Assembly: GCA_031459385.1 (NCBI GenBank)
Contig: JAVKIP010000008.1
Span: 89,064-153,063, forward strand
DNA from: Candidatus Fervidifonticultor secundus
Lineage (GTDB): Bacteria; Sysuimicrobiota; Sysuimicrobiia; Sysuimicrobiales; Humicultoraceae
Length of the DNA: 64,000 bases
Direction of reading: 5' to 3'
Below are positions 8,463-45,588 of this stretch, in pieces. Below the pieces are notes generated by a model. The model did no database searches. It saw nothing but the letters and a program-made list of their open reading frames with translations, and had not been told where the DNA came from. Numbering within the stretch: the stretch's first letter is position 1; the number at the start of each line of letters is the position of its first letter. The position numbers were made by a program, and so were the translations under genes.

Positions 8463-8963
8463 GTGACGGACAAGCCATTCGAGGTCGTCGCTGAGATCGC
8501 CCTGCAGGGCCTGCCGACCAGCAGCGATATCGCGCGCATCGACGACGCCGTGGAGCGCGCGCGGCGGAGCGCCCCCGCGGTGGTGCGTGCCACGCTGAGT
8601 CCGCCGGCGCGCTTCCGCGACGGCGGCTACTGCCTGGAGGCCCGGTTCGTGGCGTGGGCGGCCGACGGCCCCGCCGCCCAGGCGGCAGTGGAGGCTCTCT
8701 TGCGCGCCGCTGGCGTGACGGCCCGTACGGTGTACCTCTCCGGCCGGGCGCTCGCGGCTGCGGACGTCCCGCCTCCTGCGGCGCCCGCGGGTGCGGGCGC
8801 TGGCCGCGCGGCCGCGCGCCGGCCCGCTGCGCCGGCGCGCCGGCGGGGCGCGCGGACGGCCGCCAGGCCCCGCGACGCCACACCCCGTGGTCGCGCGGCC
8901 AGGCCGGCGCGGGGGGCGGCGAAAGGCGGAAGGGGCGCGCGCGGGGGCGGCCGGGGACGCTAG
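8463..8963 (+). CDS. Hypothetical protein: small alpha/beta domain plus Arg/Ala/Gly-rich basic tail
   Basis: GTG after GGAGGG; natural-looking domain of about 95 aa, then a low-complexity tail ending KGGRGARGGGRGR. Confidence 0.6.
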   Translation: MTDKPFEVVAEIALQGLPTSSDIARIDDAVERARRSAPAVVRATLSPPARFRDGGYCLEARFVAWAADGPAAQAAVEALLRAAGVTARTVYLSGRALAAADVPPPAAPAGAGAGRAAARRPAAPARRRGARTAARPRDATPRGRAARPARGAAKGGRGARGGGRGR

Positions 8964-19542: not shown

Positions 19543-21552
19543 CTGACGAGACGCCCTATCGCTCGCCATCTCGCCGTCGCGGTGCTCACCCTGCTGGGCG
19601 CGTCGGTGGGCATCTTCGGCCTGGTCCACCTGGCACCGTTCGACCCCGCGCGGTACTTCGTGCAGTTCCGACAGGGCTATCGGGAAGAGCAGATCCGGCA
19701 GGTCCGGCAGTGGTACGGGCTCGACGATCCCGTGCCCGTGCAGTACGCGCGCTGGCTGGGCCGCGTCGCGACCGGTGATTTTGGCCGCTCGGTGTCCAAC
19801 GGGCGCGAGATCGGGCCCGAGGTCTGGCGCCGCCTGCCGTGGACGCTGCTGCTCCTCCTGGTGGGGTGGGGGCTCGCGGTGCCCGGTGCGGTGATCCTGG
19901 CGGTCGCGGGCGCGCGAGGCGGCCCCGGCGGTCGGGCGGCGCGCGCCGCGGTCACCGGGGCGCTGCTCGCACCGGTCTTCCTGCTGGCCAGCGTGCTGGT
20001 CTACGTCTTCGCCGTCCGGCTGGCGTGGATTCCTATCCTGCCGCCGTTCGAGCTGCGCCCGCACGACCCCGCGCTGTGGCGGTCGGCGCTCCTGCCTGGA
20101 GTGAGCCTGGCCGTGCCCCTGGCCGCCCTGGCCGCGCGCCGGCTGGCGGCGGGGCTGCCAGCGGCGCTGGCGGCCCCCCACGCGCTGGTCGCGCGGGCGC
20201 GCGGCGCGCCCGAGGCGCTCGTGCGGCGGCGCGCCCTGCGGGTGGCTGCGGCGGCGGCGCTCACACCGGCCCTGCCGCTCGCGGTGGCCTCGCTGAACGT
20301 ACTGCTCGTCGTCGAGGAAGTGTTCGGCTGGCCCGGCCTGGGCCGGGTCTTCGTGCGGGCCGTGGCGCAGCGCGACATCACGGCCGTGCAGGCCACGCTC
20401 TTCGTGCTCGTCGCGGTGGGGCTGGCCGCAGAGGTAGTGCTGCGCCAGGTTGCGGCGTGGCTCGGGGGGCAGGACGCGGACGCCAGCGCGGCGCGCGCGG
20501 CCTTCCGGCACGCCGGCGGGAGCGCTCGGTCGCCTGCAGACCGCCCGGTGCCCCTGCCGGCGCTAGACCGTATCGCGCTTGTGGGCGCGGCGGCGCTGGG
20601 TGCCGTCGTCGTCGCCGCGCTGGCGGCGCCGGTGATCGCGCGCTTCCCCCCAGACCAGGTCCTCCTGGAGGAGATCCAGTTGCCCCCGTCGCTGCGCCAC
20701 TGGATGGGCACGGACCCTTCCGGCCGTGACCTCTTCAGCCGGCTGCTGTACGCTGGCCGGGTCACGCTCGCGCTGGCGGCGCTGCCGGCGGCGGTGGCGG
20801 TGGCCGGGGCGGTGGTCCTCGCGGCCCTGGCGCAGTGGCAGGGGCCAGCGTGGGGAGATGCCCTCCTGGGCGCCACCCGCACGCTGGGCGCGTTTCCGCC
20901 AATTGCCCTGGCCATGGCCGTCGTGATCGTCGTGGGCCGTGCGCCCGCGGCCCTGGGCGCGGTGATGGTCCTCTGGGGCCTGGCCGAGTGTGCGGATCGG
21001 ATCGCGGGCATGGTGGCGCGGGCCCGCGCCTGGCCGTTCGCCCAGGCCAGCATCGCGCTCGGCGCGCCGACGGGACGGGTCGTGGAGCGGCATCTGGTGC
21101 CCCACCTCCTGCGGCCGCTGGCCGCTGAGGCGCTCGGCCTGGTCCCCGGCTTCCTGCTCCTGGAGGCGACGCTCGGCTTCTTCGGCTTCAGCCTGAGCCC
21201 CACGGTGCCCACGTGGGGCACGCTGCTGTGGCGTGGCCGGGAAGCGCTGCACCGCGGCGACTGGTGGCTGCTGGCGTTTCCGGTGGCGTTTGCGCTGGCC
21301 GCGGCGTGGGGTTGCCTGCACCTCGCCGGGGCGCTCCGCACGCCCGGGGGCCCCACGTTCGTCAGGGCGGCCCGGCCGGCTCCGGGCCGCGAGTGGGCGC
21401 CGGTTCCCGCCCGCCCGGCCGCCCGCCAGGCGGCGCGCCAGGCGACCCGCGCCCGGGCAGGGCCGGCTGTCACGCCGGTACCGGCAGTCAGCGACCCTGC
21501 GGCACCGTCGCCCCTGCCCGGCAGCGGGGCTAGCGGCGGCGCTTCCGGGTGA
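19543..21552 (+). CDS. Fused DppB/OppB-DppC/OppC ABC transporter permease
   Basis: N-half GLDDPVPVQYARWL, GDFGRS, EEVFGWPGLG; C-half HWMGTDPSGRDLFSR, EATLGFFG, PTWG. Probable CTG start at 19543 after GGGAGG; first canonical GTG at 19582. Confidence 0.85.
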   Translation: MTRRPIARHLAVAVLTLLGASVGIFGLVHLAPFDPARYFVQFRQGYREEQIRQVRQWYGLDDPVPVQYARWLGRVATGDFGRSVSNGREIGPEVWRRLPWTLLLLLVGWGLAVPGAVILAVAGARGGPGGRAARAAVTGALLAPVFLLASVLVYVFAVRLAWIPILPPFELRPHDPALWRSALLPGVSLAVPLAALAARRLAAGLPAALAAPHALVARARGAPEALVRRRALRVAAAAALTPALPLAVASLNVLLVVEEVFGWPGLGRVFVRAVAQRDITAVQATLFVLVAVGLAAEVVLRQVAAWLGGQDADASAARAAFRHAGGSARSPADRPVPLPALDRIALVGAAALGAVVVAALAAPVIARFPPDQVLLEEIQLPPSLRHWMGTDPSGRDLFSRLLYAGRVTLALAALPAAVAVAGAVVLAALAQWQGPAWGDALLGATRTLGAFPPIALAMAVVIVVGRAPAALGAVMVLWGLAECADRIAGMVARARAWPFAQASIALGAPTGRVVERHLVPHLLRPLAAEALGLVPGFLLLEATLGFFGFSLSPTVPTWGTLLWRGREALHRGDWWLLAFPVAFALAAAWGCLHLAGALRTPGGPTFVRAARPAPGREWAPVPARPAARQAARQATRARAGPAVTPVPAVSDPAAPSPLPGSGASGGASG

Positions 21553-22498
21553 GCGCCCGCCGCGCGGCGCCGGCGATCTCGGCGGCAGTCAGCCCGTATT
21601 TCTCCATGAGCGCCCGCGGCGAGCCCGACTCGCCGAAGACATCGCGGATGCCCACGCGCTCGACCGGCACCGGCTCGTGGGCACTCGTGACCTCGGCCAC
21701 CGCCCCGCCCAGCCCGCCGTAGATCGTGTGCTCCTCGGCGGTGACGATGGCGCCGGTCTCCCGCGCGGCCTCGAGGACGGCGGTCTCGTCCAGTGGCTTG
21801 AGCGTGGCCATGTTGAGCACGCGGGCCCCGATGCCCTCGGCGGCCAGGGTCTCGGCCGCCGCCAGCGCCTCGGCCACCATGATGCCGCAGGCGATGAGGG
21901 TCACGTCCGTGCCGTCGCGCAGCCGGGCCGCGCGGCCGATGGCGAACGTGTAGGTCTCGTCGAACAGCACCGGCACCGCGGCACGCCCCAGGCGCACGTA
22001 GGCCGGTCCCCGGTGGTCGGCGAGGGCGGCGATGACCTGCTGCGTCTCGGTGGCGTCTGCGGGCACGATCACCGTCATGTTGGCCAGCGCCCGCATCATC
22101 GCCAGCTCCTCGATGGCCTGGGCGGTCATGCCGTCCTCGCCGACCGTGAGGCCGCCATGGGTGCTGACGAGCTTCACGTTCAGGTTGGGCTGCGCCACCA
22201 GCACGCGGATCTGGTCGTAGGCCCGGCCCGGCACGAAGACGGCGAACGAGCTGACGAAGGGGACCTTGCCGCACGTGGCCAGGCCCGCGGCCACGCCCAC
22301 CATGTTCTGCTCGGCGATGCCGCACTCGATGAAGCGGTCGGGGAACGCGGCCGCGAACGCCTCGAGCCGGGTTGAGTCGCGCAGGTCCCCTGTGAGGGCC
22401 ACGACCCGCGGGTCGCGCCGGCCCACGGCGACCAGCGCTTCGCCATACGCGTCCCGCGTGGCCTTCTGCCCGGCGGTCTGGCTCACGAGGCCCGCCAT
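21530..22498 (-). CDS. Transketolase, C-terminal subunit
   Basis: ATRDAYG, GIAEQNM, GEDGMTAQ, EEH. Confidence 0.92.
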   Translation of the reverse strand: MAGLVSQTAGQKATRDAYGEALVAVGRRDPRVVALTGDLRDSTRLEAFAAAFPDRFIECGIAEQNMVGVAAGLATCGKVPFVSSFAVFVPGRAYDQIRVLVAQPNLNVKLVSTHGGLTVGEDGMTAQAIEELAMMRALANMTVIVPADATETQQVIAALADHRGPAYVRLGRAAVPVLFDETYTFAIGRAARLRDGTDVTLIACGIMVAEALAAAETLAAEGIGARVLNMATLKPLDETAVLEAARETGAIVTAEEHTIYGGLGGAVAEVTSAHEPVPVERVGIRDVFGESGSPRALMEKYGLTAAEIAGAARRALTRKRRR

Positions 22499-22502
22499 CG
22501 CG

Positions 22503-23342
22503 TCAGCTCCCGGGCGCGGCGCCATCGAGCTCAGCCAGCGCCCGCGCCAGCTCGTCGTGGGTGAGCGCCTTGCCATGGAACCCCACGACCCCCTCAAGGA
22601 ACGAGACGCCCTTGCCCTTGATCGTCCGCGCGACGATCACCTGCGGCCGCCCGCGCACGGTCCGCGCCCGGTCCAGCGCCGCCACGATCGCGCCCAGGTC
22701 GTGCCCGTCGATCTCCTGCACGTCCCACGTGCAGGCCCGCCACTTGTCGCCCAGGGGATCGAGGCGGATGCGCTCCTCGGTGGGGCCGGTCTGCTGGAGG
22801 CCGTTCCGGTCGACGATGGCGGTCAGGTTGTCCAGCCCGTAGTGCGCCGCGAACATCGCGCCCTCCCACACCGCGCCTTCCTGGCACTCGCCGTCGCCCA
22901 GCATGGCGTAGACGCGGTAGGGGCGGCCGTCGCGCTTGCCGGCCAGGGCCATCCCGATGGCGGCCGAGAACCCCATGCCGAGCGAGCCGCTGGAGATCTC
23001 CACGCCGGGTGTCCGGGTCATGTCCGGGTGGCCCTGCAGGATGCTGTCGACCCGGCGCAGCGTCCACAGGTGCTCGGGCGCGAAGTAGCCGCAGGCCGCC
23101 AGCACCACGTACCAGGCCGGACACCCGTGCCCCTTGCTCAGCACGAACCGGTCGCGGTCGGGCCAGGTGGGGTTGTGCGGGTCGTGGCGCATGGTGTGGT
23201 AGTAGAGCACCGTCAGGATGTCGATGGCAGACAGCGAGCCGCCGGGGTGCCCGGAGCCCGCCGTGGTGATGACCTGCAAGATGGTCTTGCGGAACTCGCG
23301 CGCCCGCGCCTCCAGGGCGCACAGGGCTGCTGTGGACGTCAT
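22503..23342 (-). CDS. Transketolase, N-terminal subunit
   Basis: SGHPGGSLS, RDRFVLSKGH, GSLGMG, GDGECQEG. Confidence 0.93.
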   Translation of the reverse strand: MTSTAALCALEARAREFRKTILQVITTAGSGHPGGSLSAIDILTVLYYHTMRHDPHNPTWPDRDRFVLSKGHGCPAWYVVLAACGYFAPEHLWTLRRVDSILQGHPDMTRTPGVEISSGSLGMGFSAAIGMALAGKRDGRPYRVYAMLGDGECQEGAVWEGAMFAAHYGLDNLTAIVDRNGLQQTGPTEERIRLDPLGDKWRACTWDVQEIDGHDLGAIVAALDRARTVRGRPQVIVARTIKGKGVSFLEGVVGFHGKALTHDELARALAELDGAAPGS

Positions 23343-33140: not shown

Positions 33141-34406
33141 ATGCCGGTCGAGATCAAGCTACCGCAGCTGGGGGAGAGCATTCACGAAGGCACCATCGCC
33201 CGGTGGCTCAAGCAGCCTGGGGACCGGGTCGCGAAGTACGAGCCGCTGGTGGAGATTACCACCGACAAGGTCAACGTGGAGATGCCCTCACCGGTGGCCG
33301 GGATGCTGGTCGCCCTCCTGGTGCCGGAAGGTGAGACACGGCCGGTGGGGTCGCCGATCGCGCTGGTGGAACTGGAGGGCGCGGCGGCGACGGAGGGCGC
33401 GGCGGCCGCGGACGCCAGACAGGCCCAGGGCCCCGGGCGGGAAGCCCCGGCGACGCCCGCTGCCGGGGCCGGCATGCCGGCGCCCGCGGCGGCGTCCCCG
33501 ACCGCCGCGCGCGACCGCGGCGGGGCGCGTCTGTCGCCGCTGGTGCTGCGCCTGGCCCGCGAGCACGGCATCCCGCTCGGCGTGCTCGAGACCCTGCCCG
33601 GCTCGGGCGCTGGCGGCCGCGTGACGAAGGACGACGTGCTCCGCTACGTCGCGCAGCGGGCGGCGGCGCCCGCCGCCGGCATCGCCGCGCCCGCACCCGC
33701 GCCGGCGCCGGGGGCGCCATCGGGCGACCGGCTGGTGAAGCTCACGCCGATCCGGCGTGCCATCGCCCAGCGCATGGCGCAGAGCAAGCGCGAGATCCCC
33801 CACGCCTACGGCGTGATCGAAGTGGACATGAGCGCCGTGGTGGCATGGCGCGAGGCCCACAAAGAGGCCTGGCGGCGCGAGGGGGTGCCCCTGACCTACA
33901 CCGCCTTTTTCATCCGGGCGGCCGTGGACGCCCTGCGCGCCTACCCGGTCGTGAATGCTGCCTGGACCGACGAGGGCATCCTGCTGCGTGGGACGATCAA
34001 CATCGGCGTGGGCATCGCCATCGACGACGGGCTCGTGGTGCCGGTGCTCCGCGAGGCCGACCGGCTCAGCCTGCGCGGCGTGGCCGCGGCGCTCGACGAC
34101 CTGACGCGCCGGGCGCGCGCCGGCCAGCTGACGCTGGACGACATCCAGGGCGGCACCTTCACCATCACCAACCCCGGAGTCTTCGGGTCGATCTGGTCGA
34201 TGCCGATCATCGTCCCGGGCCAGGCGGCGATCCTCGCCACCGACGCCATCGTCAAGCGCGCGGTGGTCCGCGACGACGCCATCGCCATCCGGCCGATCAT
34301 GCACCTGGGGCTGTCGTTCGACCATCGCGTCTTCGACGGTGCCGTCGGCATGCAGTTCCTCCAGCACCTGAAGGCCTGGTTCGAGGGGTTCCGCGATGCC
34401 GGGTGA
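33141..34406 (+). CDS. bkdC: Branched-chain 2-oxoacid dehydrogenase E2
   Basis: PQLGES, TTDKVN lipoyl site, SFDHRVFDG. Confidence 0.92.
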   Translation: MPVEIKLPQLGESIHEGTIARWLKQPGDRVAKYEPLVEITTDKVNVEMPSPVAGMLVALLVPEGETRPVGSPIALVELEGAAATEGAAAADARQAQGPGREAPATPAAGAGMPAPAAASPTAARDRGGARLSPLVLRLAREHGIPLGVLETLPGSGAGGRVTKDDVLRYVAQRAAAPAAGIAAPAPAPAPGAPSGDRLVKLTPIRRAIAQRMAQSKREIPHAYGVIEVDMSAVVAWREAHKEAWRREGVPLTYTAFFIRAAVDALRAYPVVNAAWTDEGILLRGTINIGVGIAIDDGLVVPVLREADRLSLRGVAAALDDLTRRARAGQLTLDDIQGGTFTITNPGVFGSIWSMPIIVPGQAAILATDAIVKRAVVRDDAIAIRPIMHLGLSFDHRVFDGAVGMQFLQHLKAWFEGFRDAG

Positions 34407-35301
34407 TGGCGCCCGGCGCCCCGCGTGGCTGAAGGTCCGGCTGCCGGGCGGTCCCGACTACGCCGACCTGGTGGGCATCATGCGCACGCAGCAGATGCAC
34501 ACGGTCTGCGAGGAGGCCCGCTGCCCCAACATCGGCGAGTGCTGGGGGCGCCGGACCGCCACCTTCCTCATCCTGGGCAACGTCTGCACGCGGAACTGCG
34601 CCTACTGCGCCGTCGCCCACGGCCTGCCCACCGAGCTGGACCGCGCCGAGCCGGCCCGGCTGGCCGCCGCCGTGGCGGCCATGGGCCTGCGCCACGCCGT
34701 GGTCACCTCGGTGAACCGCGACGACCTGGCCGACGGCGGCGCGGCGATCTACGCCGAGACGATCCGGCAGATCCACCGGCGCGTGCCTGCGTGCACCGTC
34801 GAGGTGCTCGTTCCCGACTTCAAGGGCGATCCCGAGGCGCTGCGCACGGTACTGGAGGCCAACCCCGAGATCCTGGGGCACAACATCGAGGCGCCCCGGC
34901 GCATCTTCGCCGTCGTGCGCGCCGGCGGCGATTACGACCGGTCCCTGACCCTGCTCCGCCGCGCCAAGGAGTGGGGCTACACCTCGTTCACCAAGAGCAG
35001 CATCATCCTGGGCATGGGCGAGACGCCCGACGAGGTCCTGGAGACGATGGACGACCTGCGCGCCGTGGACGTCGACGTCCTGACGTTGGGCCAGTACCTG
35101 CGCCCTGGCCCGGGCTACCACCCCATCGACCGCTACTACACCCCCGAGGAGTTTGCGTGGCTGAAAGACGAGGGGCTGCGGCGGGGGTTCCGCTACGTCG
35201 AAGCCGGCCCGCTGGTGCGGTCGTCGTACCGGGCCGACGTGCAGGCCCAGGCCGTGCGGGCGTACCGCGCGCGCCTGGGGGCGGTGTCGGCGGCCGATTG
35301 A
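34396..35301 (+). CDS. lipA: Lipoyl synthase
   Basis: CEEARCPNIGEC, CTRNCAYC, RSSY. Confidence 0.97.
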   Translation: MPGDGARRPAWLKVRLPGGPDYADLVGIMRTQQMHTVCEEARCPNIGECWGRRTATFLILGNVCTRNCAYCAVAHGLPTELDRAEPARLAAAVAAMGLRHAVVTSVNRDDLADGGAAIYAETIRQIHRRVPACTVEVLVPDFKGDPEALRTVLEANPEILGHNIEAPRRIFAVVRAGGDYDRSLTLLRRAKEWGYTSFTKSSIILGMGETPDEVLETMDDLRAVDVDVLTLGQYLRPGPGYHPIDRYYTPEEFAWLKDEGLRRGFRYVEAGPLVRSSYRADVQAQAVRAYRARLGAVSAAD

Positions 35302-35331
35302 CGCGGACGGGCCGCAGCAGGGCCCGCGCCG

Positions 35332-36363
35332 CTAGCGCCGCTGCCGGGCCAGTTCTTTCTCCTTCTTCTCCATGATGGCGGAGGAGTGCCCGGGGAACGC
35401 CGACGCGTGCGGGTCGAGGTAGGTCGCCGCGTTGTTCACCGCCGTGGCCGCCTCGCCGAACCCGGTGACGATCAGCTTCAGCTTGCCCGGGAACGTGGCG
35501 ATGTCGCCGGCCGCGTAGACCCCCGGCAGGTTGGTCTCCATCTTGGTGTTGACCGCGATCGCGTCGCCCTCCAGCTGCAGCCCCCACTGCGCGATGGGCC
35601 CCAGGTTGGAGACCAGGCCCAGGAACGCCAGCACGGCGTCCACCCGCAGCACTTCCTCCTGCCCGGTCCGGTTGTTGACGATGACGGCCTCCTCGACGTG
35701 CGGGTCGCCCCGCAACGCCCGCAGCTCGTAGAACACCTTGACGGTGATGGGCGACTCGAACAGCTTCTTCACGCTGTCGACGTGGGCGCGGAAGCCGTCG
35801 CGGCGGTGGATCAGCGTGATGGCCCGGGCGTAGGGCAGGAGGTTCAGCGCCCAGTCCAGCGCCGAGTCGCCGCCGCCCACCACCAGCAGGGTCTTGTCGC
35901 GGAACTCCTCCTTCCGCCGCACGGCGAAGAAGAGGCCGCGGCCCTCGTACCGGTCGAGCTCGGGCCGCTTGTAGGTCTTGGGCGTGAAGGCGCCGATGCC
36001 CGCGGTGATGATCACCACGCGGCTGTGGTGCCGGGCGTGCGCGGTGCCGAGCTCGATCACCCCGTCGGCCCGGTGCGCCAGCGTCTGGACCTCTTCGCTC
36101 AGGCAGACGGTGGGCTCGTACTGCATCGCCTGCTCCACCAGGTTGGCGACCAGCTCCTTGCCCAGGATCTTGGGGAAGCCCGCCACGTCGTAGATGTACT
36201 TGTCCGGGTAGAGGGCAGTGATCTGCCCGCCCAGGTCGGGCTGGCTGTCGATGAGCTTGGTGCGGAATCCGCGGAACCCGGCGTAGTACGCCGCGAACAG
36301 GCCCGTCGGCCCGGCGCCGATAATGGTGACGTCGTAGAGATCCTGGGCCTGTGCCTCGTCCAT
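35332..36363 (-). CDS. Ferredoxin-NADP+ reductase (TrxR-like, YumC type)
   Basis: GAGPTG, GGQITALYPDKYIYDVAG, GGGDSALDW, HRR, PGKLKLI..G.GEA; no CxxC. Confidence 0.9.
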   Translation of the reverse strand: MDEAQAQDLYDVTIIGAGPTGLFAAYYAGFRGFRTKLIDSQPDLGGQITALYPDKYIYDVAGFPKILGKELVANLVEQAMQYEPTVCLSEEVQTLAHRADGVIELGTAHARHHSRVVIITAGIGAFTPKTYKRPELDRYEGRGLFFAVRRKEEFRDKTLLVVGGGDSALDWALNLLPYARAITLIHRRDGFRAHVDSVKKLFESPITVKVFYELRALRGDPHVEEAVIVNNRTGQEEVLRVDAVLAFLGLVSNLGPIAQWGLQLEGDAIAVNTKMETNLPGVYAAGDIATFPGKLKLIVTGFGEAATAVNNAATYLDPHASAFPGHSSAIMEKKEKELARQRR

Positions 36364-36515
36364 GAACGCCTCCGCGGTCCGCCCGGTCGGGTGGACAGCC
36401 ACCCTCCAGCGTGACCGTGCCCCATTGTACCCGTTTCTTGACACGAATTCCCACCCGTGCCAGTGTTAGGAATAATCAAGGCGCACGGCATCGTCTGGAG
36501 GTGTGGGGGAGAGGG

Positions 36516-37697
36516 ATGGCGGTCCAGACACAGCGCGGCACCGCGCCGCTGTTGAGCAAGGAGCAGCTGACTCGCTACTCGCGGCAGATCATCCTCGAGG
36601 AGCTGGGGGTGGCGGGGCAGCGCAGGCTGCTGGAGAGCAGGGTGTTGGTCGTCGGGGCCGGCGGACTGGGCTCGCCGGCCTCGCTCTACCTGGCCGCGGC
36701 CGGCGTGGGGACGCTGGGTATCGTCGACGGCGACCGGGTGGACCTCTCGAACCTGCACCGGCAGATCATTCACTTCACGCACGACATCGGCCGGCCCAAG
36801 ACGCAGTCGGCCCAGCGGACCCTGGAGGCCGTCAACCCCGACGTCACGGTCGTCCCCCACCAGACGACGCTGACGTCCGAGAACGCCCTGGAGATCATCC
36901 GCGACTACGACGTGGTCGTCAACGGCAGCGACAACTTCCCCACCCGCTACCTGGTCAACGATGCGTGCGTCCTGCTGCGCAAACCCCTGGTGGACGCCAG
37001 CATCCTCAAGTGGGAGGGCCAGGCCACGGTCTTCCTGCCGGGACAGGGATGCTACCGGTGCCTGTTCCCGACGCCGCCGCCGCCGGGGTCCGTGCCCTCG
37101 TGCGCCGAGGGGGGGATCGTCGGCGCCGTGGCCGGCTACATGGGCACGCTGCAGGCCATCGAGGCCGTCAAGATCCTGCTGGGCGTTGGCGAGACCCTGG
37201 CCAACCGGCTGCTGCTCTTCGACGCCCTGCAGGGCGAGGTCCGCACGCTCCGGTGGACCCGGAACCCCGCCTGCCCGGCCTGCGGCGACCATCCCACGAT
37301 CACCGCGCTCATCGACTACGAGCAGTTCTGCGGGCTGCCGGGCCGTCAGCACGCGTCGGCGGTCCAGGAGGCCGGCCCACCGGCCGTGGATCCCGACGAA
37401 GCGTCGCGCCTGCTGGCGCAGGGCGCGCAGCTCATCGACGTGCGCGAGCCCTGGGAGTGGGCCATGGTGCGCATCCCGGGCGCCGTGCTGATCCCCATGG
37501 CCGAGGTTTCCCAGCGCACGTCCGAGATCGACCCTAACCGGCCGGTGGTCGTGCAGTGCGCGACGGGCGCGCGCAGCGCGAAAGTGACCGAACTGCTGCG
37601 CCAGGCTGGCTACGCCCAGGCGTACAACCTGGCCGGCGGCATCGTGGAGTGGCAGAACCGGCAGCTGCCCGTGGAGGTCGGGGACGGCCGCCGGTAG
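36516..37697 (+). CDS. moeB: MoeB/ThiF adenylyltransferase fused to a rhodanese domain (MoeZ/MoeBR)
   Basis: RYSRQI, GAGGLG, SNLHRQ, CYRC, CPAC; C-terminal DVREP..CATGARS..NLAGG. Confidence 0.93.
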   Translation: MAVQTQRGTAPLLSKEQLTRYSRQIILEELGVAGQRRLLESRVLVVGAGGLGSPASLYLAAAGVGTLGIVDGDRVDLSNLHRQIIHFTHDIGRPKTQSAQRTLEAVNPDVTVVPHQTTLTSENALEIIRDYDVVVNGSDNFPTRYLVNDACVLLRKPLVDASILKWEGQATVFLPGQGCYRCLFPTPPPPGSVPSCAEGGIVGAVAGYMGTLQAIEAVKILLGVGETLANRLLLFDALQGEVRTLRWTRNPACPACGDHPTITALIDYEQFCGLPGRQHASAVQEAGPPAVDPDEASRLLAQGAQLIDVREPWEWAMVRIPGAVLIPMAEVSQRTSEIDPNRPVVVQCATGARSAKVTELLRQAGYAQAYNLAGGIVEWQNRQLPVEVGDGRR

Positions 37698-37752
37698 CGC
37701 GTCGGGGCCCGGCGGTGGTGCACGCCGTCGCCCCACCGGACCCGAGGCTCCC

Positions 37753-38787
37753 TTGATACGGCAGGCGATCCTGCGGGGGCCGCGAACACTGGACCTGGCG
37801 GAGGTGCCCCCGCCTGCGCCCGGGCCCGGCGAGGTCGTGGTGCGGGTGCGCGCGGCGCTTACCTGCGGGACCGACCTGAAGACTTTCCGGCGAGGCCACC
37901 CCCGCCTGCCGTTCGGGCCGTTCGGCCACGAGGCGGCCGGCGACGTGGAGACGGTGGGCGCGGGTGTGCGTCACGTGGCGCCCGGGCAGGCCGTGGTCTT
38001 CACGCCCACGGCCCCGTGCGGCGCCTGCGCCGCGTGCGGTCGCGGCCGGGAGAATCTCTGCGCGCACCTCTTCGATGCCATCGCCCTCGGCGCGTATGCC
38101 GACGCGATTCGGCTGCCGGCCCGGGTGGCCGCGCGGCACCTGTTCCCCAAGCCCGACGGGCTGGATTACGCCGAGGCCGCCTGCCTGGAGCCGCTGGCGT
38201 GCGTCGTGCACGGCTGGCGCCGCCTCGGCGCGACCCGCGGCGCGGTGGCCGTGGTGGGGCTCGGTCCCATAGGCCTGCTGTTCGTGCAGCTGGCAGCGGG
38301 CCAGGGGCTCGAGGTCGTGGCGGTCGGCCGCCGGCCGGAGGGACTGGCGCGCGCCCGCGCCTGCGGCGCCGCGCACACGGTCGACGCGGCTGCGGTGGCC
38401 GACGTGGGGGCGGCGCTGCGCGCGCTCGGGCGCCCAGACGGGCCGGAGGCGGTGATCGAGGCCACCGGCGCCCAGGTCGTGTGGGAAGCGGCCCCGGGCT
38501 GGGCGGCGCCTGGCGGCCGCGTGCTGCTCTTCGGCGGCCTGGCTGGCGGCAGCCGGCCGGCGTTCGACGCCGCACGCCTGCACTACAGCGAGGTGGACCT
38601 GATCAGCGCCTTCCACTACACGACCGCCGACGTGCACGAGGCGCTGGGTCTGCTGGCTGCACGCGCGATCCGCCCTGGCCTCCTGATTGCGGGGGCGCGG
38701 CCCCTGAGCAGGGTTCGCGAGATCTTCGACGACCTGGATCGCGGCGCGGGGGTGAAGTACGCCGTGATCCCCGACGGCGCGCCGTGA
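37753..38787 (+). CDS. Zn-dependent MDR polyol-type dehydrogenase 1 (NADP(H)-type signature)
   Basis: CGTD, GHE, structural CGACAAC..C, EPLAC, GLGPIG, VGRR at the end of beta-B; TTG start. Confidence 0.88.
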   Translation: MIRQAILRGPRTLDLAEVPPPAPGPGEVVVRVRAALTCGTDLKTFRRGHPRLPFGPFGHEAAGDVETVGAGVRHVAPGQAVVFTPTAPCGACAACGRGRENLCAHLFDAIALGAYADAIRLPARVAARHLFPKPDGLDYAEAACLEPLACVVHGWRRLGATRGAVAVVGLGPIGLLFVQLAAGQGLEVVAVGRRPEGLARARACGAAHTVDAAAVADVGAALRALGRPDGPEAVIEATGAQVVWEAAPGWAAPGGRVLLFGGLAGGSRPAFDAARLHYSEVDLISAFHYTTADVHEALGLLAARAIRPGLLIAGARPLSRVREIFDDLDRGAGVKYAVIPDGAP

Positions 38788-39815
38788 GGGCGACGCGGCC
38801 CGGCACGACGCAGGCTGTGGTCTGGCATGCCCCGGGCGACCTGCGCCTGGAAGACCTGCCGCTGCCGGCGCTGGGTCCCGGCGACGCGTTGCTGCGGATC
38901 ACGGCGTGCGGGCTGTGTCCGGGCGAGACGATGGACTGGTACATGGCCCGCAGGGCGCCGGCTGTGCTCGGGCACGAGGCCGTGGGCGTGGTGGTGGAGA
39001 CCGGTCCCGGCGCGGCGTGCGCGCCGGGCACCCGCCTGTTCGTGCACCACCATGCGCCGTGCCTGGTCTGCGCTGCGTGCCGGCGGGGCGCGCACGTGCA
39101 CTGCGCCGCGTGGCGGGCGCGCCGCCTGCTGCCCGGCGGCCTGGCCACCTACGCGGTGGCGCGAGCGGACGCCGTCGCCACGGACGCGCACGTCCTGCCC
39201 GCAGACCTCGATGACGAGACCGCCACGTTCATCGAACCTCTGGCGTGCGTGGTGAAGTCCCTGCGGCGCGCGCGCATGCGGCCGGGTGACCGCGTGCTGG
39301 TGCTGGGCCTGGGTGTGATGGGTCTGCTGCACCTGCTGGTAGCGCGCCGGCTCGGCCCCGCCGTGTTGATCGGCGCTGACCGCCTGGCCAGCCGCGCCGA
39401 GACCGCCCGGCCGCTCGCCGACGTGGTGGTCGATGCCAGCCGGGACGTCCTGCCCGATGCGGTGCGTGCGGCGACCGGCGATGGGGCCGACGTCGTGATC
39501 GTCGGGCCCGGCTCGGTGGAGGCGCTGGACGCCGGCGTGGCCTGTGCGGCGCCAGGCGCCACCGTGCTGCTCTTCACCCCGACGCCGCCCGAGGTGCGCT
39601 GGGCGCTGGCGCCGCACGATCTCTTCTTCAGAGAGATCAGCCTCGTGGCCAGCTACTCGGCTGGACCCGACGAGACCCGCGAGGCGGTGCGGCTCCTGGC
39701 GGCCGGGCTGCCGGTCCAGGGACTCATCACGCACCGCCTGGCGCTGGCGGATGCCGCGCGGGGCTACGCGCTGCTCCGCAGTGCGGCGGCGCTCAAGGTG
39801 GTGGTACGGCCGTGA
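38784..39815 (+). CDS. Zn-dependent MDR polyol-type dehydrogenase 2 (NAD(H)-type signature)
   Basis: CGLC, GHE, HHHAPCLVCAAC..HC, EPLAC, GLGVMG, IGADR; GTGA overlap with the previous gene. Confidence 0.88.
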   Translation: MRATRPGTTQAVVWHAPGDLRLEDLPLPALGPGDALLRITACGLCPGETMDWYMARRAPAVLGHEAVGVVVETGPGAACAPGTRLFVHHHAPCLVCAACRRGAHVHCAAWRARRLLPGGLATYAVARADAVATDAHVLPADLDDETATFIEPLACVVKSLRRARMRPGDRVLVLGLGVMGLLHLLVARRLGPAVLIGADRLASRAETARPLADVVVDASRDVLPDAVRAATGDGADVVIVGPGSVEALDAGVACAAPGATVLLFTPTPPEVRWALAPHDLFFREISLVASYSAGPDETREAVRLLAAGLPVQGLITHRLALADAARGYALLRSAAALKVVVRP

Positions 39816-40339
39816 CGCGGGCGCTCCGCGTGGGCAGCGCGTGCGAGGTGCCGTTCGTGGTGGCGGCGCGGCCGGGGGTGGCGCGCTTCGACCCGCGCAC
39901 CTTCCGCTGGCAGGGCGTCCCCGCCGCGGCCTACAAGGAGCAGACGGCCGGGCCGCTGGCCTGGCGGGGCGTGGAGCGGTTCGTGCTCATGGGGGGGCCG
40001 CAGGCGAAGGCGGCGTTCGAACTGCGCTACTTCGAGATCGCCCCCGGCGGGTACTCGTCGTGGGAACGGCACGCCCACGCCCATGCCATCGTCGTGGTGC
40101 GCGGACGTGGCCGCGTGCGCCTGGGGCGGCGCGTGGTCCGCGTGCGGCCGCTCGACTTCCTCTTCATCCCCGCCGGCACCCCGCACCAGTTTCGCGCCGA
40201 CGGCGAGCCGTTCGGCTTCCTCTGCCCCGTGGACGCGGTGCGCGACGCCCCGCGTCCGGCGGCGCGCTTGCGCGCCCTGCGCCGCCGGGCTACAATGCGG
40301 AGGAGAGCGGGAAGCCCCAGGGCCGGGAGGCGCGCATGA
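39812..40339 (+). CDS. Cupin resembling 1-methylthio-xylulose-5-P methylsulfurylase (Rru_A2000 type)
   Basis: FRWQGV....YKE, LRYFEIAPGG.S..ERHAHAH, HQFRA..EPFGFLC.V...RD.P; cupin identity is clear, the subfamily is from recalled motifs. Confidence 0.75.
   Translation: MTRALRVGSACEVPFVVAARPGVARFDPRTFRWQGVPAAAYKEQTAGPLAWRGVERFVLMGGPQAKAAFELRYFEIAPGGYSSWERHAHAHAIVVVRGRGRVRLGRRVVRVRPLDFLFIPAGTPHQFRADGEPFGFLCPVDAVRDAPRPAARLRALRRRATMRRRAGSPRAGRRA
40268..40296 (+). promoter_or_regulatory. Internal sigma70 promoter TTGCGC-N17-TACAAT for iscA-nfu
   Basis: Lies in the 3' end of the cupin gene, 40 nt upstream of the iscA ATG. Confidence 0.55.
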
Positions 40340-40707
40340 TCACCATTACGGCGCAGGCCGCCGAGAAACTCCACGAGCTCCTGCAGCAGCAGGGTGATCC
40401 GGAGGTACGGTTGCGCCTGTTCATCACCCGCGGCGGCTGCCACGGGTTCAGCTACGGGATGGCGTTCGACCGCGAGCGCCGGGCCGACGACCAGGTCGTG
40501 GCCCAGCACGGCGTCGAGGTGCTGGTGGATCCCGCAAGCCAGCGGCTCCTCGACGGCGCCCAGATCGACTACGTTCGGTCGATCGCGGGCGAGGGGTTCA
40601 CCGTCCGCAATCCCAACGCCGTCGAGACGTGCGGGTGCGGCCACTCGTTCCGGCATCGCGACGAGGCCGGCGAGCCCGATCCCTGCGACGACGCGTCGCA
40701 GAACTGA
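40336..40707 (+). CDS. iscA: A-type Fe-S carrier (IscA/SufA/ErpA, HesB family)
   Basis: GGCHGFSY, NPNAVETCGCGHSF. Confidence 0.92.
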   Translation: MITITAQAAEKLHELLQQQGDPEVRLRLFITRGGCHGFSYGMAFDRERRADDQVVAQHGVEVLVDPASQRLLDGAQIDYVRSIAGEGFTVRNPNAVETCGCGHSFRHRDEAGEPDPCDDASQN

Positions 40708-40724
40708 GCGCGAGGAGGCTGCGA

Positions 40725-40991
40725 ATGACCACCGGGGCTCAGGTGTCCGACCAGGACCAGACCCTGCGCGGGCGCGTCGAGCGGGTGCTGGACGCGATTC
40801 GTCCCTACGTGCAGGGCGACGGGGGCGATATCGAGCTGCTGGACATCACCGACGACGGGATCGTCCAGATCCGGCTGGCGGGCGCATGCGTCGGGTGCAT
40901 GTACTCCATGATGACGCTGCAGGCCGGGATCGAGCGCATGCTCAAACAGGAGATCCCGGAGCTGCGCGCCGTGGAGGCGGTGCCCTTCTAA
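40725..40991 (+). CDS. Nfu-type Fe-S carrier (NifU C-terminal domain)
   Basis: IRPYVQGDGGDIEL, GACVGC, TLQAGIE. Confidence 0.92.
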   Translation: MTTGAQVSDQDQTLRGRVERVLDAIRPYVQGDGGDIELLDITDDGIVQIRLAGACVGCMYSMMTLQAGIERMLKQEIPELRAVEAVPF

Positions 40992-41031
40992 CCCGTCGGG
41001 AGCAGGTGTCCGCTCGGGCCCCGAGGGCGTT

Positions 41032-41049
41032 GCCCCTGCGGGGCTTTTT
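41032..41049 (+). terminator. Intrinsic terminator after nfu
   Basis: GCCCC-TGC-GGGGC followed by TTTTT. Confidence 0.65.
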
Positions 41050-41076
41050 CGTCGGAGGCGGGTGGAGGATGGGAGC

Positions 41077-42570
41077 ATGAGCGCGGAGGAGGCGGGCAGC
41101 CGGGTCCCCACGGCACCGTCGTGGACCCGGATCCTCAAGAAGCTGGACGACTACCGGTGGGAGATTCCCACGAGCTACAAGCCGGGCATGCGCGTGCCGG
41201 GGCTGATCTTCGCCAGCGAGCGCATGATCCGGCAGATGGGCGAAGAGCAGGCCTTCGAGCAGGTGGCGAACGTGGCGACGCTGCCGGGCATCGTCGGCCG
41301 GTCGCTGGCGATGCCGGACGTGCACTGGGGGTACGGGTTCCCGGTGGGCGGCGTGGCGGCGTTCGACGAGGACGACGGCGTGATCTCGCCCGGCGGGGTC
41401 GGCTACGACATCAACTGCGGCGTGCGCCTGATCCGCACCGACCTCACCGAAGCCGACGTGCGTCCGCGTCTGGAAGACCTGGTGGCCACGCTCTTCCGCG
41501 CGGTGCCCTCCGGCGTCGGCGTGGGCGGGAAGGTCAGGGTCAGCATGCAGGAGATCGACGACGTGCTGGCCCGCGGCGCCCGGTGGGCGGTGGCGAAGGG
41601 CTACGGGACCCCCGACGACCTGGAGGTCATCGAGGCCGGGGGCGCGCTGGCCCAGGCCGACCCGGCGCAGGTCAGCACCGAGGCCAAGCAGCGGGGCCGC
41701 GGGCAGATCGGGACGCTGGGCTCGGGCAACCACTTCCTCGAAGTGCAGGTGCTGGATCAGGTCTTCGACGCCGCGGCCGCCCGGGTGATGGGCCTGGAGG
41801 AGCCCGGCCAGATCGTGATCTTCATCCATTCGGGATCGCGGGGGTTGGGGCATCAGGTCTGCACCGACTACCTGCGGGTGGCCGAACGGGCGAACCGGCA
41901 GTATGGCATCCACCTGGTGGACCGGCAGCTGGCGTGTGTGCCGCTGCGGTCGCCCGAGGGACAGCGGTACTTCGGCGCGATGTGCGCCGCCGCCAACTTC
42001 GCGTGGGCCAACCGCCAGTTGATGACGCACTGGGTGCGCGAGAGTTTCCAGCAGGTCTTCGGGAAGTCGTGGGAGGCCCTGGGGATCCGGCTGGTCTACG
42101 ACGTGGCCCACAACATCGCCAAGATGGAAGAGTACGAGGTGGACGGCCACCGCCGGCGCGTCTGCGTACACCGCAAGGGCGCCACGCGCGCGTTCCCGCC
42201 GGGCCACCCTGAGGTGCCGCCGCGCTACCGGGCCATCGGCCAGCCGGTGCTCATCCCCGGCGACATGGGCCGGTATTCGTTTGTCCTGGTGGGCGCGCCG
42301 GGCGCCATGCAGGAGGCGTTCGGGTCCACCTGCCACGGGGCAGGGCGCGTGCTGGGCCGCAAAGCCGCCGTCCGCCAGCTCGCGGGCCGCAACATCGCCG
42401 ACGAGCTGCGGCGGCAGGGGATCATCGTGCGGGCGCAGGATCCCCACCTGCTGGCCGAAGAGGCCTCCGCGGCCTACAAGGACGTCGCCGATGTGGTGGC
42501 GGTTTGCCATGCGGCCGGGCTGAGCCGCCGGGTGGCGCGCCTGCGGCCCATCGGGGTCATCAAAGGGTAG
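41077..42570 (+). CDS. rtcB: RNA ligase RtcB (long, archaeal/eukaryote-like type)
   Basis: [48 protein letters not shown]. Confidence 0.96.
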
Positions 42571-42580
42571 GACGAGGATC

Positions 42581-43750
42581 GTGCGCGCGTCCCCTTCGAG
42601 CCTCGCCGCCGACGAGCAGCGCCTCATCGCGCAGACCGTGCGCGCCTTCGCGCGGGAGGTGCTGCGCCCGCAGGCCGCGGCGTGGGACCGCGAGGGGCGC
42701 TTTCCGACCGAACTCGTCCCGCAGCTGGCGGAGCTGGGGCTGCTGGGGATGGTGGTGCCGGTGGCATACGGCGGGGCGGGGCTCGACCTCACCGCGGTCA
42801 TCGCCGCCATCGAGGCGCTGGCCTGGGGCGATGCCGGCGTGGCGCTGTCGGTGGCCGCCCACAACTCGCTGTGCTGCGGGCACCTGGTGCTGCACGCCAG
42901 CGAGGCACAGAAGCGCCGCTACCTGCCGGCCCTGGCCACTGGCGCGATGCTCGGCTCGTGGTGCCTGACCGAGCCGGCGGCGGGCAGCGACGCGGCCGGC
43001 ATCCAGACCCGTGCGCGGCGGGTGGGCGAGCGCTGGGTGCTGAACGGGACCAAGGTGTTCGTCACCAACGGCAGCCTGGCGGGTCTCTACGTGGTGATGG
43101 CCGTCACCGATCCGGGCGGCGGGCGCAGGGGCATCAGCGCCTTCATCGTGGAGCGCCAGACGCCCGGGCTGGAGGTCGGCCGCACGGAGGACAAGCTCGG
43201 CGTGCGCAGCAGCGACACCGCGGAGGTGCGGTTCGCCGACTGTGCCCTGCCCGCCGAGGCCCTCATCGGAACAGAAGGCGACGGCTACCGGCAGGCCATG
43301 GAAGTGCTGGACCGCGGGCGCATCGGCATCGCGGCGCTGGCCGTGGGGCTGGGCCGGGCGGCGCTGGACGCCAGCCTGGCGTACGCGACGCAGCGCAGGG
43401 CGTACGGGAAACCCATCGCGGAGCTGCAGGCGATCCAGTTCATGCTGGCCGACATGGCCACCGAGCTCGACGCCGCCTGGCTCCTGACCGAGCACGCCGC
43501 GGCGCTGGCCGACCGCGGCGAGCCGCACCGCGTCGAGGCGTCGATGGCCAAGCTCTTCGCCTCGGAGGCCGCCGCCCGCGCCACCGCCCGCGCCGTGCAG
43601 ATCCACGGGGGGTACGGGTTGACCAGGGACTACCCGGTGGAGCGCTTCTACCGCGACGTGAAGCTCACCGAGATCGGTGAGGGCACCAGCGAGGTGCAGC
43701 GGGCCATCATCGGCCGCGAGGTGCTGCGCCGCCTGGGAGGCAGGGCGTGA
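42581..43750 (+). CDS. Acyl-CoA dehydrogenase
   Basis: [34 protein letters not shown]. Confidence 0.93.
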
Positions 43751-45588
43751 CGTCGCCGTTCGCGGCGCGGCTGGCCCGGGGGCCTCTGCTGGCAGACGGC
43801 GCCATGGGCACGATGCTGTACGCGCGCGGCGTGCCCGTCGATCAGTGCTTCGAGGCGGTCAACCTCAGCGATCCTGCCCTGGTCACCGGAATCCACCGGG
43901 CGTACCTCGACGCGGGCGCCGAGCTGCTGGAGACCAACACGTTCGGCGCCAACCGGCTGAAGCTCACCGCCTATGGGCTCGCCGACCGCGCCGCCGAGAT
44001 CAACGCGGCCGGCGTCGCCATCGCGCGCGCGGCCGCGCAGGCAGCAGGCCGGCAGGTCTGGGTCGCAGGGTCGATCGGTCCGCTGGGCCGCTCACTGGCG
44101 CCTATCGGCACCGTGACGGTCGAGGAGGCGGCCGAGGTCTTCGGCGCGCAGGCGCGGGCCCTGGCCGGTGCCGGTGCCGACGTGCTGGTGCTGGAGACGT
44201 TCGCCGACCTCCGGGAGCTGGAGACGGCGGTACGCGCGGCGCAGGCCGCCACTGCCCTTCCCATCATCGCAGAGATGACGTTCGGGCCCGATAGCCGGAC
44301 GCTGCTGGGACATCGGCCGGAGGAGATCGTGGCCCGGCTGGAACCGCTGGGCGTGGCTGCCATCGGCGCCAACTGCAGCGTCGGGCCCTACGGCATCGTG
44401 GAGGTGCTGGAGCGCATGGCGGCCGTGGCCAGCACGCCGCTGGTGGCGATGCCCAATGCGGGCCTGCCCACCATCGTCGGCGGGCGGCTGGCCTATGTGG
44501 CGTCCCCGGCCTACATGGCCGAGCACGCGCGGGCGCTGGTGGACCTGGGCGTGGCGATCGTCGGCGGCTGCTGCGGGACCACGCCCGAGCATATCGCGGC
44601 GATGCGCGCGGCGATCAGTGGCCGCCCGCCCGGCCCCCGGGCCCGGACCACCGCGCGCGCGGCCGCCCCGCCGCCTCCTGCGCCACCGCCGGCGCCGCAG
44701 GGTTCGCTGGCGCAGAAGATCGGGAAGCGCTTCGTGATCACGGTGGAGGTGACGCCGCCGCGGGGGGCCTACGACGCCGAGGCCCTCGAGCACTGCCGGC
44801 GGCTGCGCGCCGTGGGTGTGGACGCCATCGACGTGGCCGACAACCCCATGGCCCGCCTGCGCATGAGCCCCTGGGCCATGGCGGCGCGCATCGAGCGCGA
44901 GGTCGGGGTCGAGACGATCCTCCACTTCACGACGCGCGACCGCAACCTGGTCCGCCTCCAGTCGGACCTGCTGGCCGTGCACGCGCTGGGCATCCGGACG
45001 ATCCTGGTCCTGCGGGGCGACCTGCCACAGACCGGCGACTACCCGCGCGCCACCGCCGTGGCCGACGTCCATCCCTCGGGCCTGGTGCGCCTCGTCAAGG
45101 GCTTCAACAGCGGTCAGGACGTCGCCGGCAACCCGATCGGCACGCCGACGAGCTTCCTGGTCGGGGTCGCGCTCAACATGGCCGCGCGCGATCCGGACCG
45201 GGAGTTGCGGGCGCTGGAGCGCAAGCTGGCCGCGGGCGCCGACTTCGTCTGCACCATGCCCATCTTCGAGCTCGCCACCCTCGACCGGTTCCTGGCCCGC
45301 GTGGGGCAGCTGCCAGTGCCGATGCTGGTGGGCGTGCTGCCGCTGCACAGCGCCCGGCACGCCGAGTTCCTCCACAACGAGCTGCCGGGCATGGTCGTGC
45401 CCGACGCGGTCCGGGCGCTCATGCGGCAGACGCGGGACGGGCGCGAGGCCGGTCTCCGCCTGGCGCGCGAGCTGCTGGCCGCACTGCGCACCCGCGTGGC
45501 GGGCGTCTACCTGGTGCCGTCGTTCGGCCGCTACGACCGCGTGGTAGACCTGGTGGCCGAGGTGCGGGCGGCGTCGCCGGCCCGGTAG
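43747..45588 (+). CDS. yitJ: Bifunctional homocysteine S-methyltransferase / methylenetetrahydrofolate reductase
   Basis: DGAMGT, TNTFGAN, GANC, GGCCGT; MTHFR half RDRN, AEFLHNE.PG. Confidence 0.92.

Follow-up and report, generated by a model that had tools for sequence, protein, structure and literature searches.

The shunt leading from 5'-methylthioadenosine (MTA) to isoprenoids in Rhodospirillum rubrum and Rhodopseudomonas palustris, as set out in passages of PMC5893883, PMC6302742 and PMC4334135, consists of MtnP, MtnA, a DeepYkr RubisCO-like protein that acts as 5-methylthioribulose 1-phosphate (MTRu-1P) 1,3-isomerase, and the cupin Rru_A2000/RPA2170, the 1-methylthio-xylulose 5-phosphate (MTXu-5P) methylsulfurylase; 1-deoxyxylulose 5-phosphate (DXP) is then made. 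In a 64,000-nucleotide stretch of Candidatus Fervidifonticultor secundus (contig JAVKIP010000008.1, positions 89,064 to 153,063 of the forward strand; hereafter the window), two genes for Zn-dependent medium-chain dehydrogenases/reductases (MDRs), MDR1 and MDR2, form a conserved three-gene module with a cupin gene homologous to that of Rru_A2000, which was absent from a preliminary description of the pair. MDR1 and MDR2 overlap by 4 nt (GTGA), and MDR2 and the cupin likewise by four bases. The system resembles the shunt in having MtnP, MtnA and Dxr as well as a cupin of the methylsulfurylase type, and the proposed substrate and product are the same. It differs in that two Zn-MDRs stand beside the cupin and there is no RubisCO-like protein, and in that many hosts of the pair have lost dxs, whereas R. 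rubrum keeps it; the cupin is absent from some hosts. Because the RubisCO-like isomerase is absent, the pair system works like the shunt yet is not a member of it as defined; most likely the module is a RubisCO-free variant of the route from S-adenosylmethionine (SAM) by-products to DXP, and it is a candidate for a natural bypass of DXS.

Two other kinds of described system bear comparison. The xylose reductase/xylitol dehydrogenase relay, as excerpted from PMC2315639, also combines an NADPH-preferring reductase with an NAD+-dependent dehydrogenase to give a net isomerisation; unlike that relay, both enzymes here are MDR paralogues, the substrate would be a deoxy-ketose phosphate, the carbonyl would shift 1,3, and a dione is the probable intermediate. 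DXP formation without Dxs is described, in parts of PMC10663253, PMC8791446 and PMC11730185, for mutant AceE, mutant RibB and YajO, and according to a section of the review PMC8791446 there exists a route from 5'-deoxyadenosine to DXP. Those three bypasses are, in the same parts of the papers, laboratory suppressors or overexpression effects, whereas the pair is a natural, conserved gene set from another enzyme family.

We infer all of the substrates and the direction of the reaction from the genes, motifs, co-occurrence and genomic contexts that were observed. On balance we favour a reading in which MDR1 and MDR2 together replace, by redox chemistry, the RubisCO-like 1,3-isomerase of the MTA/5'-deoxyadenosine-isoprenoid shunt and yield DXP. 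MtnP and MtnA, whose genes are present and whose activity is known from homologues, would make 5-deoxy- or 5-methylthio-ribulose 1-phosphate; MDR2 would use NAD+ to oxidise the C4 hydroxyl to a 3-hydroxy-2,4-dione phosphate; MDR1 would use NADPH to reduce the carbonyl adjacent to the carbon that bears the phosphate, which leads directly to DXP or else to its 1-methylthio form, MTXu-5P; the cupin, judged by homology, would take off the methylthio group; and Dxr would then consume the DXP. Working through the Fischer projections, inversion at C3 would be unnecessary. With opposite cofactors, the NAD+ and NADPH pools of the cell would draw the isomerisation one way, and this fits the net one-way isomerisation by an NADPH reductase and an NAD+ dehydrogenase that had been proposed from the sequence.

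The cupin homologous to Rru_A2000 in the operon is what points to the MTA-isoprenoid shunt as the pathway. Its best match in the PDB is Rru_A2000 (3jzv) with an E value of 1.2e-29; two further cupins follow at 1e-26 to 1e-27, and unrelated ones score 1e-5 or weaker. E85, H87, H89, H91, H125 and C138 are invariant, comprising the His/Glu metal motif and the Cys of a GFLC motif, which we take to be catalytic. By sequence the protein classes as a methylsulfurylase. The same cupin family is encoded directly behind a RubisCO-like gene on a Terrarubrum plasmid (44% identity to the window cupin) and likewise adjoins a RubisCO-like gene at locus L254. A second methylsulfurylase-like cupin copy was seen at L145 (genome G046), where it adjoins a sulfurtransferase-like gene, and at G047:C101.

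The genome to which the window belongs (97.6% complete, 5.5% contaminated) encodes MtnP (TIGR01694, 303 bits; cut-off 275) and MtnA (TIGR00512, 425 bits; cut-off 279), has dxr and ispG above cut-off, and carries speE-like genes. A RubisCO-family gene was found neither as a PF00016 match nor by tblastn with the cupin-linked Terrarubrum RubisCO-like protein, and no acireductone dioxygenase gene scored above cut-off. There is also no dxs above cut-off, here or in four of four relatives (94-97% complete). In this organism, with dxr and ispG but no dxs, the proposed route is a leading candidate for the source of DXP. The best dxs-like match in the genome is a split transketolase encoded by N- and C-terminal genes at 21530-23342 of the window (minus strand), a possible promiscuous source of DXP.

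The cofactor assignment starts from two motifs given in the preliminary description, VVAVGRR (G192-R193-R194) in MDR1 and LIGADR (D199) in MDR2. Both are present and correctly placed: strand βB, as modelled by AlphaFold, runs to residue 192 in MDR1 and to 199 in MDR2, the two positions fall in one alignment column, and this column lines up with the Asp of sorbitol dehydrogenases and, in 1e3j, an NADP(H) ketose reductase, with Ala-Arg. Under the MDR cofactor rule as given in part of PMC4028059 (Asp at the βB end versus a small residue plus Arg), MDR1, where a small residue and Arg replace the Asp, classes as NADP(H)-type and MDR2, with D199, as NAD(H)-type. The motifs thus fit the preferences first suggested, NADP(H) for MDR1 and NAD(H) for MDR2.

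To see how far this pattern extends, we computed a tree of 329 MDRs taken from every locus and from the window's own genome, leaving out fragments of <240-290 model positions, duplicates and the two plasmid loci. MDR1-like and MDR2-like proteins form a single clade (support 1.0) with two halves. Every MDR2-clade sequence (158/158) has an acidic residue at the βB end; of the 159 MDR1-clade sequences, 110 have a small residue plus Arg/Lys, 33 have Asp and 16 some other motif, and the window's own MDR1 subclade has Gly/Ala-Arg in 34/34. An independent set of 41 metagenome loci with both kinds of gene, found by MDR1 patterns in which these motifs had no part, shows the opposite signature in 24; MDR1 is ambiguous (G-L-E) in four, and both genes have Asp/Glu in 13, a number that includes several distant members from sugar-catabolic clusters. 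The predicted conservation of opposite signatures across paired homologues therefore holds throughout for MDR2 and in part for MDR1: the pattern is real and dominant, yet a majority feature rather than a defining one. Pairs sharing one cofactor could cycle too. Distant Asp-type members of both clades (L279, L314, L319, L320, L322 and L335) lie near FGGY kinases, Dak, rpiB, phosphotransferase system (PTS), transketolase, class II aldolase and pyruvate dehydrogenase (PDH)-like genes; such members probably serve polyol-phosphate catabolism, which is perhaps the ancestral role of the clades.

The NADP motif of MDR1 is found in 45/48 dxs-less genomes versus 18/33 dxs-bearing ones, a difference confounded by lineage; these counts include the unpublished genomes G063 and G107 and omit 15 Binatia genomes for which MDR1 loci were not retrieved. 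All 15 exceptions among the dxs-bearing genomes are Nitrospirota or near them. At Nitrospirota loci (e.g. L019, L033, L069, L086, L093-L097) MDR1 has changed to Asp or G-L-E and dxs is kept, so that these MDR1s offer a natural test set for a cofactor switch.

Two further peculiarities had been pointed out in MDR2. The HHH stretch ahead of the structural Zn site is there (H88-H90), is retained in 35 of the 41 independent loci, and is presumably a substrate-pocket motif; an earlier count of 80/80 was discarded as circular, FVHHHAPC having been a search pattern, and is superseded by the 35/41. The CGLCPGE motif is atypical in one respect only: its C-G-x-C part is ordinary (4ej6 has ACGICGTD), and C45 equals the Zn-ligand Cys of CGTD, but the PGE is odd in that the Thr/Ser hydroxyl is lost. 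Core MDR2 proteins mostly have C-[S/T/P]-G-[D/E], while the LsrF-linked subclade described below and Acidobacteriota subclades retain CGSD/CGTD.

The two dehydrogenases are inherited together even when their genes are apart. We examined the best 80 of 264 MDR2 genome loci confirmed among 600 rows, and within 6 kb of MDR2 a whole MDR1 was found in 33 and the cupin in 41. Among the 47 genomes without a whole adjoining MDR1, 42 have a full-length orthologue elsewhere, three a partial copy and two none. A search of 50 MDR2 genomes found the cupin in 29; those without it are mostly Binatia. Near MDR1 in 80 metagenome loci, the neighbours are MDR2 (43), the cupin (20), ispA (10), shc (8), dxr (4) and mtnA (1). 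MDR1 and MDR2 share only 34% identity across 304 aa, which indicates an old duplication.

Loss of dxs is common among the hosts. In the 80 MDR2 genomes, dxr was matched in 77 (73 above cut-off) and dxs in 26, and 53 have dxr without dxs; because dxr was recovered in 77, assembly gaps cannot explain the missing dxs. The 53 belong to a handful of lineages and hence do not represent 53 independent losses. Gene orders place the pair among isoprenoid genes. L215 (unpublished genome G107) reads xseA-xseB-ispA-MDR1-MDR2-tlyA-nadK, with the pair in what is presumably the usual place of dxs, and L216 reads dxs-CDF-MDR1-MDR2-tlyA-nadK. L218 and L227 have hpnH-ispA-MDR1-shc-dxr-hpnCD, and 15 of 50 genomes, all of one lineage, have dxr 2-3 kb behind MDR1. 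L221 and its variants have shc-hpnA-hpnG-MDR2-MDR1-hpnCDE, and at L226 MDR1 and MDR2 flank carotenoid genes and idi.

An independent sample comprised 151 genomes (>=92% complete) of Acidobacteriota, the phylum to which G050 belongs (its locus carries the label Blastocatellia), with 14 candidates per genome scored in the large searches. These contain dxr in 137, dxs in 87, mtnA in 149, a RubisCO-family gene in 22 and an MDR1 orthologue in 22, plus one broken copy. Among genomes with dxr, dxs is missing in 14/23 with the pair versus 37/114 others (Fisher p 0.017, an overstatement, as kin are not independent). Where dxr is present but dxs and the pair are both missing, RubisCO-like proteins are no explanation: most such genomes (e.g. 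G087, G126, G166, G186, G209) also lack the RubisCO-like isomerase, and a full re-search of five of them found no MDR1 orthologue. The pair was accordingly rejected as an explanation of all dxs loss, with 37 of the 51 dxr+/dxs- genomes lacking it, and these genomes imply a further source of DXP. We also rejected mtnA as a discriminating marker, given its presence in 149/151; in five cupin-less Binatia it was found in four, one copy being split. RubisCO-family genes occur in 6 of 50 MDR2 genomes, none of them close to the cupin-linked type (<=79 bits); the closer, cupin-linked type occurs in six Acidobacteriota genomes, one of which (G195) has the pair. The idea of a strict mutual exclusion of pair and RubisCO-like isomerase was dropped.

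The question that these genomes raise is an acknowledged one. Passages of PMC10663253 count 181 species with an otherwise complete methylerythritol phosphate (MEP) pathway but no Dxs, 172 of them without explanation, and list four genomes (three Chloracidobacterium and Thermodesulfovibrio yellowstonii) that have the cupin but neither a RubisCO-like isomerase nor dxs; the relevant parts of PMC11730185 and PMC13001223 leave the absence of dxs unexplained or list other bypasses. In Blastocatellia (L066, L070) and a Thermodesulfovibrio (L056) we find the pair and no dxs; these are other genomes of the same class or genus as those four in PMC10663253, which thus belong to groups that carry the pair here. 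In the literature searched, which mostly leaves out subscription journals, no dehydrogenase pair is described in a DXP-forming role. DXP supply without Dxs being a stated open question, the proposal puts forward two small soluble enzymes with their putative substrates and cofactors, and the pair could help to explain isoprenoid synthesis without the usual first enzyme in many bacteria. If the proposal is true, it gives a function to a large family now labelled 'sorbitol dehydrogenase' (with related clades counted in, the MDR2 profile picks up at least 7568 clusters at E 1e-60 or better), and a DXP route that sidesteps the feedback-regulated Dxs is of interest for terpenoid engineering. A wider claim can be put forward only tentatively, as we doubt it a little more than we believe it: that the pair is a natural, widespread DXS-independent entry to the MEP pathway, a transhydrogenation-driven two-enzyme 1,3-isomerase, and the main or only DXP source in whole lineages from which dxs has gone (Binatia, the group to which the window belongs, Vulcanimicrobiota, Blastocatellia with Chloracidobacterium among them, and Thermodesulfovibrio), with the MDR2 dione an unrecognised branch point leading by MDR1 to DXP and by LsrF to dihydroxyacetone phosphate (DHAP) and acetyl-CoA.

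Several observations weigh against the favoured assignment to the shunt. The pair is neither necessary for dxs loss nor exclusive to it: 37/51 dxr+/dxs- Acidobacteriota lack it, and 9/23 Acidobacteriota with it keep dxs. MDR1-clade proteins with Asp in place of the NADP-type motif (33/159) and the distant members in sugar-catabolic clusters do not fit readily, nor does G195, where the pair occurs together with a cupin-linked type of RubisCO-like protein. Only 1/80 metagenome loci has mtnA or mtnP near the pair, and mtnA is so nearly universal that its presence fails to discriminate. The split transketolase of the window, or PDH E1, could provide DXP instead, and the flux through salvage may be too small for hopanoid producers. 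Finally, 21 of 50 MDR2 genomes have no cupin, so that the 5'-deoxyadenosine branch is needed to account for them; it follows from the chemistry that this branch needs no cupin. The 5'-deoxyadenosine-to-DXP route has reportedly been shown for the R. rubrum RubisCO-like protein.

The order of the two steps is informed by a 20-member clade nested within MDR2 (support 0.999 with core MDR2), in which an LsrF thiolase above cut-off (NF006081) adjoins the dehydrogenase in 17/20 loci (L166, L168, L169, L171-L180, L184-L187). The substrate of LsrF, 3-hydroxy-5-phosphonooxypentane-2,4-dione, is 5-deoxyribulose 1-phosphate oxidised at C4, that is, the intermediate proposed here, and reduction of its other carbonyl gives DXP. 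In these pairs the dione would presumably be cleaved, unlike in our system, where MDR1 would reduce it; LsrF and the MDR2-clade enzyme are a candidate route from 5-deoxyribulose 1-phosphate to DHAP and acetyl-CoA. No MDR1 orthologue was found in the genomes of this clade (Acidobacteriota sample), and loss of dxs is not enriched in them (6/19 versus 31/95), which favours a catabolic role; the opposite, anabolic direction (DHAP and acetyl-CoA to DXP) was set aside on this ground and because one genome lacks dxr. The window's genome has no LsrF orthologue, its best tblastn matches being ~30% identical and class I aldolase-like. Three loci with dehydrogenases of the LsrF-linked type (L181:310-1497, L182:314-1498, L183:2524-3786) have instead a ~400-aa neighbour with no NCBIfam match at E 1e-20.

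Because the partner of the MDR2-nested clade is LsrF, an enzyme that acts on the oxidised dione, oxidation followed by reduction is the more likely order, the reverse of the reduce-then-oxidise relay of the preliminary description. Oxidation first also fits the cofactor motifs and the fact that, where the genes separate, MDR1 remains by ispA, dxr and hpnC. The same net reaction with reduction first, in which MDR1 (NADPH) would act at C2 to give 5-deoxy- or 5-methylthio-arabitol 1-phosphate and MDR2 (NAD+) would oxidise C4 to give DXP or MTXu-5P, we regard as unlikely. Its regiochemistry and cofactors are identical to those of the oxidise-first order, the nearest solved relatives are polyol dehydrogenases, a pentitol phosphate is stabler than a dione, and there is the precedent of xylose reductase/xylitol dehydrogenase (in the part of PMC2315639 cited above); against this order, the LsrF-linked clade, operating without MDR1 beside a dione-cleaving enzyme, indicates that MDR2 acts on the ketose phosphate itself.

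Equally improbable to us is that the pair supplies DXP de novo from central metabolism and not from SAM waste, whether MDR1 reduces a RibB-type intermediate, a pentanedione phosphate that comes from ribulose 5-phosphate, or whether DHAP and acetaldehyde are joined by a class II aldolase to 5-deoxyribulose 1-phosphate, which the pair then isomerises. Either would remove the difficulty over flux in hopanoid producers that have neither cupin nor dxs (the cupin being absent in 21/50), and RibB variants convert ribulose 5-phosphate to DXP according to a passage of PMC8791446. The pair lies within riboflavin operons, by ribE/ribBA, in L312 and L274, but such a context is confined to about four loci; and the window's genome has three class II aldolase matches, but neither of the two that were scanned reaches a named-family cut-off. 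The links to the cupin (41/80 loci) and to LsrF indicate SAM by-products. As to the operons themselves, L312 has ribD-ribE-MDR1-MDR2-ribBA-ribH-mtnA (3939-11239), with mtnA four genes downstream of the pair; in L274 the pair is likewise inside the operon (3912-8018), and the ribE family is also seen in L290 and L304.

Still less probable is a part in tailoring the hopanoid side chain (e.g. ribosylhopane reduction) or in the catabolism of some other polyol phosphate unrelated to DXP. The pair is frequently found among shc, hpnH, hpnG and hpnCDE, and the distant Asp/Asp members among FGGY kinase, Dak, rpiB and PTS genes; in Acidobacteria, part of PMC5462960 reports a Zn-dehydrogenase gene of unassigned function ('ug2') before hpnC, which may or may not be MDR1, and dxs as missing in six of them. 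The window's own genome, though, has no squalene-hopene cyclase (no PF13243 match), the pair also sits at the dxs slot and beside carotenoid genes, and the methylsulfurylase-like cupin and the absence of dxs would be left unexplained. That the pair are two redundant, broad sorbitol/threonine-type dehydrogenases, as the database names of the source genes ('L-iditol 2-dehydrogenase', 'sorbitol dehydrogenase') and best PDB matches have it, is very improbable in view of family scores of ~100-112 bits against cut-offs of 376-550, 34% mutual identity, and a division into two clades that are inherited together but differ in their invariant pockets.

Both proteins are nonetheless ordinary MDRs in fold. 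Each matches Pfam ADH_N and ADH_zinc_N above the gathering cut-off and has the catalytic Zn ligands (Cys, GHE, Glu) and a four-Cys structural site, invariant in the alignments as C38/H59/E60/E146 and C89/C92/C95/C103 in MDR1 and as C45/H64/E65/E151 and C93/C96/C99/C107, together with H88-H90 and D199, in MDR2. The models have predicted local distance difference test (pLDDT) scores of 96.6 (MDR1) and 95.5 (MDR2); the order of secondary structure in MDR1 agrees with the MDR fold, and MDR2 compares with solved MDRs, of the L-threonine (TDH) and sorbitol dehydrogenase (SDH) type, at template-modelling scores of 0.80-0.87 and <=30% identity. The best PDB matches of the pair are SDH and TDH. Sorbitol, L-threonine and galactitol-1-phosphate dehydrogenases and the whitefly NADP(H) ketose reductase (1pl6, 2dq4, 4a2c, 1e3j) share the fold, the Zn ligands and the switch between Asp and small residue plus Arg, but the identity to them is at most 30% (MDR2 fold search) and the pair is far below their family cut-offs. 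Neither MDR reaches any named NCBIfam MDR equivalog (TDH, IolM, galactitol-1P dehydrogenase, idonate dehydrogenase and others), the best scores being 106.6 bits where the cut-off is 376 and 112 where it is 450. The invariant pocket motifs of the pair are different ones: CGTDLKxxxRGH and RLHY in MDR1, and WY, HHHAPC and SYS in MDR2. The earlier view that these are not redundant sorbitol dehydrogenases is borne out, both by the distance from all named families and by the separate clades that are co-inherited even when unlinked (42/47).

It had also been suggested that the two might form a hetero-oligomer. A model of the MDR1-MDR2 complex scored 0.89 where the best control scored 0.00, a homodimer not being among the controls; the mark used for this score is attained by 116/157 solved complexes and 2/215 mismatched pairs. 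The runs share at least 93% of contacts, the partners have pLDDT of at least 91, and the interface is centred on residues 276-291, which we take to be the usual MDR homodimer strand. The high score may stem from likeness to solved homodimers, and the fact that the two genes are often unlinked weighs against the idea.

Table 1. Positions of the module genes and of the motifs discussed, numbered from the first letter of the window.
Feature	Position	Strand	Details
MDR1, Zn-dependent MDR	37753..38787	+	TTG start, TGA stop, 344 aa; Pfam ADH_N + ADH_zinc_N
MDR2, Zn-dependent MDR	38784..39815	+	GTG start, TGA stop, 343 aa; Pfam ADH_N + ADH_zinc_N
Cupin homologous to R. rubrum Rru_A2000	39812..40339	+	overlaps MDR2 stop by GTGA; best PDB match 3jzv
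G192-R193-R194 of MDR1	38326..38334	+	NADP-type signature at end of Rossmann strand βB
CGLCPGE of MDR2	38907..38927	+	C45 = catalytic Zn ligand; PGE for canonical GTD
HHH (H88-H90) of MDR2	39045..39053	+	just ahead of structural Zn loop
D199 of MDR2	39378..39380	+	NAD(H)-type acidic residue ending βB

The operon lies within a run of plus-strand genes (34396-45588) that also includes a thioredoxin-reductase-like gene, a lipA-like (radical SAM) gene, moeB-rhodanese, iscA, nifU, rtcB, an acyl-CoA dehydrogenase gene and a homocysteine methyltransferase fusion; the lipA, reductase and methyltransferase names come from reading the sequence and not from a profile scan. A promoter scan gave two sigma-70-like sites in or near moeB and one terminator at 41032, with no site just upstream of MDR1. 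One metatranscriptome contained a fraction of 0.09 of the words; with short contigs mostly from other organisms, it says nothing about expression. Two closely similar uridine phosphorylase loci on separate contigs (L084 and L085; G000:C53 and G000:C37) are consistent with the 5.5% contamination or with a mixture of strains. The gene order of the run was seen again in close relatives only; the nearest relatives, at 55-69% identity, go under the labels Armatimonadota, Ca. Fervidifonticultor, 'bacterium ANGP1' or just 'bacterium', and MDR2 is present in four of five relatives searched.

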